DNA from: Candidatus Zambryskibacteria bacterium RIFCSPHIGHO2_01_FULL_46_25
GTDB taxonomy: Bacteria; Patescibacteriota; Minisyncoccia; Phycocordibacterales; Zambryskibacteraceae
Length of the DNA stretch: 64,000 nucleotides
Assembly (NCBI GenBank): GCA_001825155.1
Contig: MHVH01000005.1
Location: 168,501 to 232,500, forward strand
Direction: 5' to 3'
Under the pieces are notes generated by a model. That model saw only the letters and a list, made by a program, of their open reading frames with translations, searched no databases and was not told the DNA's origin. The translations under genes were made by a program, and so were the position numbers. Shown here piece after piece: positions 2,101 through 32,117 of this stretch; within the stretch, counting starts at the first letter, position 1; each line of letters opens with the position of its first letter.

Positions 2101-2847
2101 CTACTTCAAAAGGTCATCGAGGTAATGTTTGAATTTATAAAATGCCGGATGATCAGGGTAGACAGCATGGAACATTGTAACTTCATCCAAATCTTCGATA
2201 TCAGCATTTTCGTTTGGACCAATTAACATATATTTTTCTTTCGGGAAAATATATAATTCGCCATTTATCGAATACCTAGTCAGAGCAATTGCTAGTGCTC
2301 CCTGCTCATCATGGTGGGTTTGATTATCTTTAGATATGTTCTTTTTCCACCAATTTAATTCTTCTGACAAATCTTGAGAAATGTTATAACCTGCTTTTTG
2401 TATAAAGAGACCAGCATTTACAAAGGGAGTTTGTTTGTCAGCTTTTTGCTGCATAGCCCCATACTGCCACAGCTGACCGAAAAACTCATCCATAATACCG
2501 AACTTTGATTTCGAGTCCTTGATGAAATCGTCAATTTCTTTTGGGTATCTCAATAAAAATACATCCGAGTCAATATAGACCTCCGTTTCATTTACATCTA
2601 TTCTCGGGCTTGGACACCACTTTTTCCATGTAGCAACAGAATCAATATCATACTCACTAACGATGTTGGTAAAATCTAGCACTTCAGCAATTCCGTTGAA
2701 TTTGTTCATCCAGTCACTTGGTGAATCTGTATAGATGACATATCTGTGTTTATTACCAAATTGCTTTTTGAAAGACAAAATACTATACCTAAGTAAATCT
2801 AGGTTTTTTTCTTTATATTGACCCCATATACTCCATCTAAATATCAT
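2101..2847 (-). CDS. hypothetical protein in glycosyltransferase cluster
   Basis: 248-aa ORF, same strand, tightly packed with neighbours. Confidence 0.35.
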   Translation of the reverse strand: MIFRWSIWGQYKEKNLDLLRYSILSFKKQFGNKHRYVIYTDSPSDWMNKFNGIAEVLDFTNIVSEYDIDSVATWKKWCPSPRIDVNETEVYIDSDVFLLRYPKEIDDFIKDSKSKFGIMDEFFGQLWQYGAMQQKADKQTPFVNAGLFIQKAGYNISQDLSEELNWWKKNISKDNQTHHDEQGALAIALTRYSINGELYIFPKEKYMLIGPNENADIEDLDEVTMFHAVYPDHPAFYKFKHYLDDLLK

Positions 2848-3590
2848 TTTATTTTAGGAAAATGTTTAGGTTTCCACTGCTTTCTTTTAGTATTATTATA
2901 TTTTGAATACATTTCGAATATCTTTCTTTGATCTGGTCTTTCAATAAGCCATTTATCAATATTGGTGTAATATCCATGAAAACCAAATTGATCTTTATAG
3001 TTATCATCGCCGCCCTCGAATGCAAATCTTCTTGCTAATTCTACATCAGCGAATTCTATTCCTCTTTTTATAAAAAGATCTCTGTACCATACACTGAACG
3101 CTATGTCTTCTGGATGAAAATATGGAATCTCACTTGATTTAAATAATTCTGCCGATACTTCTAAGAATTTCCTGCTCCTTATACAAAAACCTCCATTACC
3201 AACCACTCTTCTCCCTCTCCAGTTTTCAGGAAACCCAAAATCATTAATTGACCAATCTTTTACAACCCATGGTGCACCAATATAATCATAATTTAGAAAC
3301 TCATTGGTCCAACTATTTGGGTTTAAGATGAATCCATCCCATTGAACCAGTAAAACAAATTCTGTATCAACGTAGTCTTTTAAGTCACTTAAACAGAACT
3401 GCGAATATTGCTCATGAGAAGCAATCTCTTTTATTTTAATTAATCTATGATCTTCAACATCCTTTGAAGTAAGCAGCTTGGATTTTGCAAAAGTAATTTT
3501 TTCTTCGCACAAATTCATTACTTCCTGTAGCTTAGCTGGGTCGACACAATCAATCCCTAGCAAAGTAACTTTATCTAACTTTAATTTCAT
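2844..3590 (-). CDS. hypothetical protein in glycosyltransferase cluster
   Basis: 248-aa ORF overlapping the downstream gene by 4 nt (operon-like). Confidence 0.35.
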   Translation of the reverse strand: MKLKLDKVTLLGIDCVDPAKLQEVMNLCEEKITFAKSKLLTSKDVEDHRLIKIKEIASHEQYSQFCLSDLKDYVDTEFVLLVQWDGFILNPNSWTNEFLNYDYIGAPWVVKDWSINDFGFPENWRGRRVVGNGGFCIRSRKFLEVSAELFKSSEIPYFHPEDIAFSVWYRDLFIKRGIEFADVELARRFAFEGGDDNYKDQFGFHGYYTNIDKWLIERPDQRKIFEMYSKYNNTKRKQWKPKHFPKIK

Positions 3591-30603: not shown

Positions 30604-30652
30604 GACCTCACCCGGTCTTACGACCACCCTCTCCTAGACGCAAGGAGAGGGT
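30604..30652 (+). repeat. palindromic mini-repeat (GACCTCACCC...CCCTCTCCT-loop-AGGAGAGGG), copy 1, overlapping the 3' end of the DUF559 gene
   Basis: Identified by eye; four copies in the window share GACCTCACCC plus the hairpin CCCTCTCCT/AGGAGAGGG. Confidence 0.85.
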
Positions 30653-30985
30653 TTGCTTAATTATCCCAATTACTTTATTCAAATTTTTGGTAATTTCATA
30701 ATTTTTTATACGAAGAGTTTGATATCCTAAGTTTTTAAAAAACTTATCACGATTAGAATCATATTCTTTTTGAAATTCATGCGATTTACCATCAATTTCA
30801 ACAATCAACCTGGCTTTAAAACAGTAGAAATCGAGTATGTATCCTCCCATGCTGTGTTGTCTTCTAAATCTGCACCCGAGTTTATTATTTCTAAGTTTTT
30901 GCCACAACATCTCTTCTTCTGGAGTTGATGATTCCCTGAGATTCCGTCTTCGTTCAATAAATTTTCGTTGATTATGTATTTTCAT
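30608..30985 (-). CDS. DUF559 endonuclease-domain protein (Vsr/restriction-endonuclease-like fold)
   Basis: YILDFYCFKARLIVEIDGKSHEF...RDKFFKNLGYQTLRI is the DUF559 pattern. Confidence 0.65.
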   Translation of the reverse strand: MKIHNQRKFIERRRNLRESSTPEEEMLWQKLRNNKLGCRFRRQHSMGGYILDFYCFKARLIVEIDGKSHEFQKEYDSNRDKFFKNLGYQTLRIKNYEITKNLNKVIGIIKQTLSLRLGEGGRKTG

Positions 30986-30990
30986 GCTTG

Positions 30991-31032
30991 CCCCCTCTCC
31001 TTACGTTCTAGGAGAGGGGTTGGGGGTGAGGT
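30991..31032 (-). repeat. palindromic mini-repeat copy 2 (inverted relative to copy 1), between the DUF559 start and the rseP stop
   Basis: CCCCCTCTCCTtacgttctAGGAGAGGGGttgGGGGTGAGGTT. Confidence 0.85.
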
Positions 31033-32117
31033 TAGAAAATATTCCTAACGTCCCTTATGGTAATAAGTATCATCAGGAAGATTAGCAGGGCGAAACCGGC
31101 GGCATTCACGGCGTTGAAAAATCTGACGGGAATCTTCCTCCTGGTAATCGATTCCATGCCTACGAAGAGTAGCCTGCCTCCGTCAAGGGCCGGGAACGGC
31201 AGAAGATTGATTATCGAGAGATTTATAGAAAGAAGTGCGGTGAAGGTGACGAGATAGCCCCAGCCGAGATTGCGTATATCCCCCACCATACCGACAATTC
31301 CCACCGGTCCGGTTACGGACGCTAGGTCCGCCTTACCGACAAACGCCCGACCTATTAATCCGACAATCGCTTTGGCCGTAAGAGTGGTGAGAGAAGCTGT
31401 GGTCTTAAGCCCTTCCCATACAGCCCGATGCGCCGGCAACTTCACCGTCCCGATAGTTTCCATGGATATGCCGACTGCTTTCTGTCCCGGCAAAATGCCT
31501 TCCTTTGGAGTTACTGTCTTCTGCGAAATGTCCTTGCCCCTCTGAATTTCAAAGGCAATGGACCCTGAAGAATTTTTTATATACCTTGTCGCCTCTTCCG
31601 GAGTAAGGTTCAGAATCACATCTCCTGCCTTGAGGCCCGACAAAGCAGCCGGGGATTCCGGCACTACGAGCGTTATCACGGTGCGCGGATTCTCAACGGG
31701 TAAGGAAGTGCTCGCGGGCGATGGTATACCTGTGATAAAACCGAGAGAGATGAGCAACCAAGCGAAAAGGAAATTGAAGAAGACGCCCGCCGCGAGCACG
31801 GTAGCCTGTATGCCACGATTTTTGGATTGAAAATTATCTGGATCAAGACCTCTCCCCTTCCCCTCTCCTAAATTAGGAGAGGGCTGGGTGAGGTCGGTCT
31901 CTGAATTCTCCCCAAAAATTTTTACAAAGCCGCCGAAAGGCAGCCAGTTGAGCGTGAAATCAGCTCCCTTCCATTTAAAAATCTTTTTGGCGCGAGGCGG
32001 GTAGCCCAGGCCGAATTCGTCCACGCGTATGCCAAAAAACCTTGCCGCGAGAAAATGCCCAAGCTCATGCACTACGATAAGCGCGCTTAAAATTATTAAG
32101 AAGATTATTATTGACAT
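31032..32117 (-). CDS. rseP: RIP metalloprotease RseP (site-2 protease, M50 family)
   Basis: HELGHFLAARFFGIRV zinc motif, PDZ domain, C-terminal TM helices; contains an in-frame palindromic repeat insert. Confidence 0.85.
   Translation of the reverse strand: MSIIIFLIILSALIVVHELGHFLAARFFGIRVDEFGLGYPPRAKKIFKWKGADFTLNWLPFGGFVKIFGENSETDLTQPSPNLGEGKGRGLDPDNFQSKNRGIQATVLAAGVFFNFLFAWLLISLGFITGIPSPASTSLPVENPRTVITLVVPESPAALSGLKAGDVILNLTPEEATRYIKNSSGSIAFEIQRGKDISQKTVTPKEGILPGQKAVGISMETIGTVKLPAHRAVWEGLKTTASLTTLTAKAIVGLIGRAFVGKADLASVTGPVGIVGMVGDIRNLGWGYLVTFTALLSINLSIINLLPFPALDGGRLLFVGMESITRRKIPVRFFNAVNAAGFALLIFLMILITIRDVRNIF
31855..31896 (-). repeat. palindromic mini-repeat copy 3, inserted in frame inside rseP
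   Basis: CCCTCTCCTaaattAGGAGAGGGctgGGTGAGGTC; encodes ...DLTQPSPNLGEGKGRG... in RseP. Confidence 0.85.

Follow-up and report, generated by a model that had tools for sequence, protein, structure and literature searches.

We analysed a stretch of 64,000 nucleotides (the window) from Candidatus Zambryskibacteria bacterium RIFCSPHIGHO2_01_FULL_46_25, in which a gene of the DUF559 family stands between rseP and proS and is bounded on both sides by short GC-rich palindromic repeats. The best explanation of our results is that positions 30605-31032, on the reverse strand, are an accessory, selfish-type cassette in which the DUF559 gene is nested in the spacer of a doublet resembling REPINs, the doublet form of repetitive extragenic palindromes (REP). 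The foreign composition of this element, its sharp ends at differing junctions, its absence from closer relatives, and its mosaic copies all argue for a mobile accessory cassette. A first-pass annotation of the same DNA had called the region a mobile cassette akin to miniature inverted-repeat transposable elements (MITE). Its accessory and mobile character is supported by our analysis, but the cassette itself is not a MITE because it carries a gene, and it is the gene-less units described below that are MITE- or REPIN-like forms.

A DUF559 gene nested between inverted repeat units

The cassette is a discrete element of 428 bp and consists, in the sense of the gene, of a 5' repeat unit, the DUF559 open reading frame (ORF), and a 3' repeat unit. 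Each REP-like unit is made of a 9-nt tail (ACCTCACCC) and a GC hairpin (H1) of 9-10 bp, to which the 3' unit adds a second hairpin (H2). The H1 loops of the two units are reverse complements of one another and the tails point outward, hence the flanking units are inverted copies. This is how the first-pass annotation had described them, with coordinates (30604-31032) that prove correct within one base.

The upstream unit (30991-31032) lies, as had been proposed, between the start of the ORF and the rseP stop codon. Its tail (31024-31032; ACCTCACCC in gene sense, GGGTGAGGT on the forward strand) ends on base 31032, which is also the last base of that stop codon. Hairpin H1a (30991-31019, reverse strand) has a 10-bp stem and an 8-nt loop (CCCCCTCTCCT-TACGTTCT-AGGAGAGGGG) and a predicted fold of -11.1 kcal/mol (z -3.5). 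Read in gene sense, the sequence before the ORF is ACCTCACCC-CCAA-CCCCTCTCCT-AGAACGTA-AGGAGAGGGG-GCAAGC-ATG. The 3' arm of H1a (AAGGAGAGGGGG) is a Shine-Dalgarno-like sequence placed 5-11 nt before the ATG, and the same layout is found in the cassettes of L001, L005, and L006.

The ORF itself (30608-30985, reverse strand) encodes 125 amino acids and runs into the downstream unit (30605-30652), which on the forward strand reads tail, H2, H1. Hairpin H1b (30626-30652, reverse strand; CCCTCTCCT-AGACGCA-AGGAGAGGG at 30627-30651 on the forward strand) is within the ORF and encodes TLSLRLGEG. It is separated from the tail by the small hairpin H2 (30614-30625, reverse strand), which is GGTC-GTAA-GACC in gene sense and GGTCTTACGACC on the forward strand. 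The terminal tail (30605-30613, reverse strand; GGGTGAGGT in gene sense, ACCTCACCC on the forward strand) holds the stop codon TGA of the gene at 30608-30610. The ORF thus ends, in gene sense, with ...ACC-CTC-TCC-TTG-CGT-CTA-GGA-GAG-GGT-GGT-CGT-AAG-ACC-GGG-TGA-GGT. Its last 12 codons, encoding ...TLSLRLGEGGRKTG, come from the downstream unit, in agreement with the earlier proposal that this copy supplies the C-terminal residues.

The gene has a GC content of 0.31-0.34, against about 0.47-0.5 in the surrounding DNA and the rest of the window. DUF559 is the only ORF of the cassette, which encodes no transposase (DDE, HUH, serine, or tyrosine). We found neither a sigma-70-like promoter nor an intrinsic terminator on the gene strand of the cassette, and its hairpins lack T-runs. 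A search of the window against Rfam with an E-value threshold gave only a chance-level match to STnc630 (E=0.62). In five public assemblies (L212-L216) the gene callers annotate the ORF as 80 amino acids, with the internal Met46 (MGGYILDF...) as start. Since homologues are conserved from residue 1, the real product is that of 125 aa.

The product is a predicted Vsr-like nuclease under purifying selection

The ORF product is 100% identical to a Candidatus Zambryskibacteria protein and matches Pfam DUF559 (PF04480) with an E-value of 2e-34 over profile positions 5-108 of 109. It scores 80.7 bits against NCBIfam PRK09767, under the curated cut-off of 218, and its only other Pfam match, MTES_1575, is also under the cut-off (28.7 bits for 38.2). 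A profile built from 38 homologues matches a single PDB entry, 3HRL (E=3e-29), an uncharacterised Neisseria "endonuclease-like protein". In the AlphaFold2 model of the protein the predicted local distance difference test (pLDDT) is 86. Foldseek ranks 3HRL first for this model, followed by the catalytic domain of the homing endonuclease I-Bth0305I of the EDxHD family (3R3P; probability 1.0, template modeling scores 0.64/0.80), with E. coli Vsr (1VSR) lower. Residues D52, E63, D65, H69, D76, and R79 are invariant among the 38 homologues. Hence, the full-length profile match and the modelled fold with its acidic and histidine residues identify the product as a DUF559/Vsr-like member of the PD-(D/E)xK class, with a predicted nuclease function. 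Previous works have linked DUF559 to the EDxHD homing endonucleases (PMC9403480; PMC3424549).

Purifying selection on the protein is strong: the ratio of nonsynonymous to synonymous rates (dN/dS) is 0.05-0.13 in the five pairs of genes for which dS could be estimated, the other pairs being saturated in dS. The repeat-encoded peptide tail TLSLRLGEG is kept in homologues of 65-75% identity. The family is large, since phmmer retrieved 24,221 DUF559 representatives of 50% identity clusters at E<=0.001. Some of these representatives (P0216-P0218, P0220) have two or three DUF559 stretches or are very long, the longest having 1214 aa. Fusions, tandem copies, or annotations that read through a stop may lie behind them. 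Some stand-alone homologues (P0038, P0042, P0048) are named "leucyl-tRNA synthetase" in JGI records. In viral contigs, we found only distant DUF559 relatives (46% identity or less) and none from the subfamily of the cassette.

Cassettes occupy different junctions and have mosaic histories

Seven cassettes from different genomes and sites can be aligned. Their homology begins exactly at ACCTCAYCCC and stops at GGGTGAGGT, and the sequences outside are unrelated. They are found at rseP|proS (the window and L005/L009), pgk|HIT (L008, L010, L006/L011), and dprA|topA (L001/L012). The first-pass annotation had advised looking for other DUF559 genes with the same flanks, and such genes do exist: three genomes have the cassette at pgk|HIT, one has it at dprA|topA, and one contains two copies. 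More broadly, DUF559 genes of many phyla have flanks of this kind (see below). All cassettes have H2 on the 3' side of the gene, whose direction is that of the upstream gene and whose start lies 5-11 nt past the purine-rich H1 arm (AAGGAG...).

To compare the junction in relatives we took the closest ProS homologues. The presence/absence polymorphism that had been anticipated between proS and rseP is indeed observed: the DUF559 gene is missing in four genomes whose ProS is 79-86% identical to that of the window (L088-L091), and the cassette is present in a more distant one (L005/L009; ProS 77% identical). The contents of the junctions lacking the gene are diverse. The spacer has 42 nt in L088 (ProS 86%), whereas L089 (ProS 80%; 2430-3000) has an unrelated ORF of 119 aa on the other strand, lacking Pfam matches, and two GC hairpins. 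In L090 (ProS 79%) there are 417 nt of non-coding DNA (2584-3000), and in L091 (ProS 79%) 115 nt (1851-1965) with an unrelated CCCCCACACCTAAAAT palindrome. The rseP|proS junction is therefore a variable hotspot whose content differs in each relative, and its intergenic DNA is too diverged among them to define the exact empty target.

The assembly CAYFFP01 carries two cassettes, at rseP|proS and at pgk|HIT. Identity between the two is 98-100% in the first ~150 nt and 94% in the 50 nt that follow; from there on it is mostly 72-76%, apart from one stretch at 96%. At the protein level the two agree fully in the tail, H1, and all 56 N-terminal codons. In L009, the rseP|proS copy is 80-88% identical to the copies at the pgk site and 72% identical to the copy of the window at its own site. 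We therefore rejected that the two rseP|proS copies are positional orthologues. Gene conversion or re-insertion is favoured by this mosaic pattern over simple vertical descent by position.

Across the seven cassettes, almost no position of the H1 hairpins or of the tails varies. The H2 stems vary between copies and still pair (GGCC/GGCC, GGC/GCC, GCTTC../..GAAGC). Over 58 distinct spacers the minimum free energy of H2 is -2.9 kcal/mol, against -0.9 kcal/mol in shuffled sequences (p=5e-7), which shows compensatory variation. As the repeats are nearly invariant despite the saturation of dS, and the pairing of H2 is kept, they must be either constrained or continually homogenised.

One locus has additional DNA. 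In L006 (4381-4825, equivalent to about 8126-8570 of L011), the 3' unit of the cassette is followed by ~390 nt of unannotated, GC-rich, structured-looking DNA that ends at a second, solitary 3' unit (H1-H2-tail) beside the HIT gene. The segment is missing in L008 and L010, has no Rfam match at the gathering score, and its 65-aa ORF has no Pfam match. It may represent another cargo, with units of this type at both ends.

Pairing of DUF559 genes with hairpin repeats across phyla

We studied 80 DUF559 loci from GTDB species genomes. Around most of the genes the design recurs in a lineage-specific version, with a C-rich tail, in some cases an H2, and a hairpin of the CCCCTCC type. Among the hosts are Patescibacteria, Bacteroidota, Ignavibacteria, Cyanobacteria, Gammaproteobacteria, and Chloroflexota. 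To quantify this, we computed a flank score by local alignment of the upstream flank with the reverse-complemented downstream flank, with a threshold of at least 30. The threshold is reached by 53% of 73 DUF559 genes and by 3.5% of 749 control genes of the same loci, a 15-fold difference (p=1e-19). In an independent set, the IMG/VR contigs, the values are 27% for DUF559 genes and 0.5% for controls. Perfect 8-bp GC hairpins have a density of 4.0 per kb at the ends of DUF559 genes and of 0.19 per kb elsewhere (21-fold), and at least one side carries such a hairpin in 60 of 74 loci. In 68 of 76 loci, the AT content of the gene exceeds that of its host. In the S-type loci of 18-20 kb, the pair flanking the DUF559 gene is often the sole pair of copies. 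Identity between DUF559 proteins is 0.53 within a repeat type and 0.49 between types, a difference that none of 1000 permutations reached. These results show that the association between DUF559 genes and such repeats is general across phyla, and suggest DUF559 as the enzymatic partner of a widespread family of repeats. In the searchable literature mentioning DUF559, we found no description of an association with repeats.

Gene-less units were collected with an exact-pattern scan of metagenome contigs. The scan returned at least 139 units in at least 120 loci, on contigs of 0.32-0.68 GC, and among the matches listed only five adjoin a DUF559 gene. About one third of the units listed have tails on both sides (tail-H1-(H2)-tail'), i.e., the cassette minus its ORF. 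There are also gene-less doublets, in which two inverted units are separated by a spacer of 19-47 nt. Gene-less units, single or double, vastly outnumber those that bear the gene. Since the gene-less doublets have the same design as the cassette, the latter can be described as a REPIN-like doublet whose spacer holds the nuclease ORF.

Repeat units in frame within rseP and tsaD

The window contains five matches, at four sites, to the pattern CCTCTCC-N(4-20)-GGAGAGG, for an expectation of 0.00 in 100 shuffles. Two of the sites flank the DUF559 ORF and the other two are in frame within essential genes. All four units are predicted to fold as single strands, with z-scores between -3.5 and -4.5. 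The gene-less unit in rseP (31847-31895, reverse strand) consists of a tail, H1, and a degenerate second tail, encodes DLTQPSPNLGEGKGRG, and has the lowest z-score (-4.5, for -17.4 kcal/mol). The one in tsaD (59728-59761, forward strand), a gene identified by its match to Pfam TsaD (E=7e-76), consists of a tail and H1 and encodes DLTQPSPSQGEG. The two units share 22 identical nucleotides (GACCTCACCCAGCCCTCTCCTA), in the same orientation and frame, and add DLTQPSP..GEG to both proteins. The rseP unit has no counterpart in the RseP of L090 and L005, whereas in L091 the same codons hold a decayed homologue of it. The insertion is therefore old, and the hairpin is perfect only in the lineage of the window. 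It is plausible that the cassette is the source of these in-frame copies.

The G-rich strand of every type of unit (e.g., 31010-31032 of the window, forward strand) has the Shine-Dalgarno-like motif AAGGAG in H1 and GGTGA or GAGGT in the tail. The C-rich arm is similar to the anti-Shine-Dalgarno sequence of the 16S rRNA (CCTCCTTA). The hairpins are in effect palindromes of Shine-Dalgarno and anti-Shine-Dalgarno sequences, and could affect the translation of neighbouring genes.

A similar arrangement in Escherichia coli

A related arrangement is found in E. coli K-12 (NC_000913.3, 1351000-1351830; L297), where the 3' end of ycjD, a DUF559 gene, overlaps an H1-like motif (CCCTCTCCC-TGAAAGAGC-GAGGGGG). 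The GTG start codon of ycjD sits in a 16-bp hairpin beginning with CACCTCAT, which differs from the downstream repeat. About 180 nt downstream of the gene lies CCCCTCTGGGGAGAGGGTTAGGGTGAGGGG, a multi-copy element with the design of a hairpin plus a GGGTGAGG tail (GGGTGAGGGG tail). An 81-nt query around this repeat matches a median of 15 places per genome across all the 5426 complete E. coli genomes. It probably belongs to the BoxC family, given its copy number and the first description of BoxC beside envM/fabI. BoxC has been reported in 22-32 copies (PMC2267715). The gene ycjD is accessory, its flanks being found in 3378 of the 5426 genomes (62%). In O157, the sapF-fabI region lacks ycjD and has a different set of genes in its place, which led us to reject a clean excision of the gene. 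The presence of ycjD beside a repeat of the same design in K-12 means that the idea of a partnership may be testable in a model organism.

Possible mechanism and alternative explanations

We slightly favour an explanation in which the nuclease acts on the repeat units. The DUF559 enzyme would recognise a unit, either as duplex or as extruded hairpin, and nick or cut it. Repair of the break by copying from another copy would then move the ORF into gene-less doublets, in a homing-like manner, and the same repair would spread or homogenise the units, in a manner reminiscent of REPINs and their REP-associated tyrosine transposases (RAYT). The Vsr/EDxHD fold, the mosaic paralogues, the patchy distribution, and the AT-richness of the gene also fit a free-standing homing endonuclease that targets a repeat doublet. 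The DNA damage that a DUF559 protein causes in Caulobacter (PMC12907096) and the enrichment of DUF559 among candidates for programmed inversion (PMC9881135), both described below, are independent hints in favour of this explanation. The gene would have no promoter of its own and be read through from rseP. Its ribosome-binding site would be the 3' arm of the hairpin that precedes it. The stem probably masks this site, which would keep expression low.

A broader proposal, which we put forward tentatively, is that DUF559 nucleases are the cognate enzymes of pan-bacterial GC-hairpin repeats with a G-rich tail (GGGTGAGG / GGGGTGGT). These would constitute a second REP system, independent of RAYT, where a Vsr-fold nuclease homes its own gene into doublets and maintains or spreads the repeats. 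Such a superfamily would include the in-frame "PSP..GEG" inserts of Patescibacteria and probably the BoxC repeats of E. coli.

A number of points weigh against a nuclease that propagates its repeats. The link between the two is correlative, and PD-(D/E)xK nucleases are not known to have strand-transfer activity. Around 19% of the DUF559 loci lack a strict flanking hairpin. The orientation of the units varies with the subfamily, since the tails point outward in the subfamily of the window and inward in L017, L019, and L052, and the units are direct in L032 and L033, which is at odds with a classical transposon having ends of fixed polarity. The target-site duplications that the first-pass annotation had suggested looking for were found neither in the seven cassettes nor in the gene-less units, and the A and T at their flanks are part of the repeat itself. 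The cassette is fixed within the species, and its 100% identity in five samples, with no polymorphism, gives no sign of recent activity. The co-variation between protein and repeat type is small and confounded by host phylogeny. Finally, BoxC-like repeats are present in 5426 of 5426 E. coli genomes and ycjD in 62% of them, i.e., the repeats persist without the gene.

In a second explanation, the DUF559 gene is mobile, by homing or otherwise, and simply finds in REP-like doublets a place where it can land safely, the repeats being spread by something else. All that separates this from our preferred explanation is the role of the nuclease in propagating the units, and we regard it as rather unlikely. 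It is in line with the existence of gene-less doublets of the same geometry, with the excess of gene-less units over a wide range of GC content, with the E. coli genomes that keep their repeats without ycjD, and with a homing endonuclease being the second-closest solved fold. There is also a precedent in REP-targeting insertion sequences (PMC8450116). IS1397 and ISPpu9 insert into REP or bacterial interspersed mosaic elements. However, no other candidate mobilising enzyme was seen beside the repeats, the only copies in 20-kb loci are often the two that flank the DUF559 gene, and repeat type and DUF559 similarity do co-vary, if weakly.

A third explanation, which we consider improbable, is that DUF559 is an ordinary Vsr-like nuclease of very-short-patch repair, next to which REP-like elements with regulatory, mRNA-stabilising, or translation-attenuating roles have accumulated by chance. 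The fixation of the cassette within the species, a dN/dS of about 0.1, and the predicted masking of a Shine-Dalgarno-like sequence by the upstream hairpin are compatible with it. Moreover, the DUF559 protein VsrA of Caulobacter, the only one for which we found functional data, is functionally tied to a cytosine methyltransferase: it triggers an SOS response upon deletion of that enzyme, and it causes DNA damage in vivo (PMC12907096), which is indirect evidence of a nuclease activity. Yet, an ordinary repair gene accounts poorly for the foreign composition, the homology ending exactly at the repeat tails in unrelated sites, the empty sites in closer relatives, the mosaic paralogues, and the 15-fold excess of inverted-repeat flanks over controls. 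There is also no adjacent methyltransferase in the loci with called genes.

The arms are inverted and DUF559 is 14-fold enriched among inverted-repeat-flanked candidates for programmed inversion (PMC9881135), an enrichment that we read as an echo of the same flanks, but a switch flipping the gene is highly improbable and was rejected given the single orientation in all cassettes and samples (H2 is 3' and the gene co-oriented with the upstream gene in 7/7 cassettes, with no inverted isoform among the five samples of the species), arms of only about 25-45 nt, and no recombinase nearby.

If the partnership between DUF559 and the repeats is true, it gives a role to a very large family that lacks an assigned biology. 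It would also explain the origin of the GC-rich hairpin repeats with G-rich tails that litter many genomes and make spurious "PSP..GEG" peptides, and account for the in-frame inserts in essential proteins of the reduced genomes of Patescibacteria. Finally, it would represent a second, mechanistically different counterpart to RAYT/REPIN.

Comparison with known systems

The E. coli ycjD region shares with the cassette the end of a DUF559 gene in a hairpin motif, a nearby repeat made of a hairpin and a GGGTGAGG tail, and the accessory character of the gene. It differs by the distinct 16-bp hairpin on its upstream side and by the persistence of the repeats in genomes lacking ycjD. Like MITEs, the cassette has terminal inverted repeats, in the form of perfect 9-nt tails and subterminal hairpins. 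Unlike them, it lacks a target-site duplication and carries an intact ORF under selection, and its non-coding multi-copy form is represented only by the gene-less units. The palindromic elements of Rickettsia are also short palindromes inserted in frame in conserved genes, where the peptide is tolerated (here DLTQPSP..GEG in RseP and TsaD). They are, however, of another sequence family and host phylum than the units of Patescibacteria, and have no identified partner gene.

Insertion sequences that target REPs (IS1397, ISKpn1, ISPpu9/10) place a mobile gene in the centre of a REP doublet, which results in inverted REP flanks similar to those of the cassette. They do so with a DDE transposase, terminal repeats of their own, and target duplications, none of which are found in the cassette. 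Homing endonuclease genes such as that of I-Bth0305I (EDxHD; PDB 3R3P) are also small, AT-rich genes of patchy distribution encoding a nuclease, and the folds of the catalytic domains are alike. The similarity extends to the mosaic copies suggestive of gene conversion and to the rseP|proS site being empty in L088-L091 and occupied in the window and L005. In contrast to them, the cassette is outside introns and inteins, and a dispersed repeat would take the place of the unique conserved gene as presumed target.

The closest parallel is with RAYT and REP/REPIN. In both cases a nuclease gene, usually in low copy number, stands between inverted copies of a short GC-rich palindrome with an asymmetric tag, the gene-less singlets and inverted doublets are dispersed and more numerous than the gene-bearing ones, and inheritance is mostly vertical, with the gene fixed within species. 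The enzymes are different: that of the cassette is Vsr/EDxHD-like, of the PD-(D/E)xK class, whereas RAYTs are HUH Y1 transposases similar to those of IS200/IS605. No HUH Y1 match was found among the Pfam results, hence the cassette is analogous to the RAYT-REP/REPIN system and not a member of it. The tags also differ, ACCTCACCC/GGGTGAGGT in the cassette and GTAG or CGTC in REPs, the two classes given in PMC3733652. Finally, two traits set the cassette apart from RAYT/REPIN: the gene overlaps the repeat, which provides its ribosome-binding site, its C-terminus, and its stop codon, and units of the same type are found in frame within essential genes.

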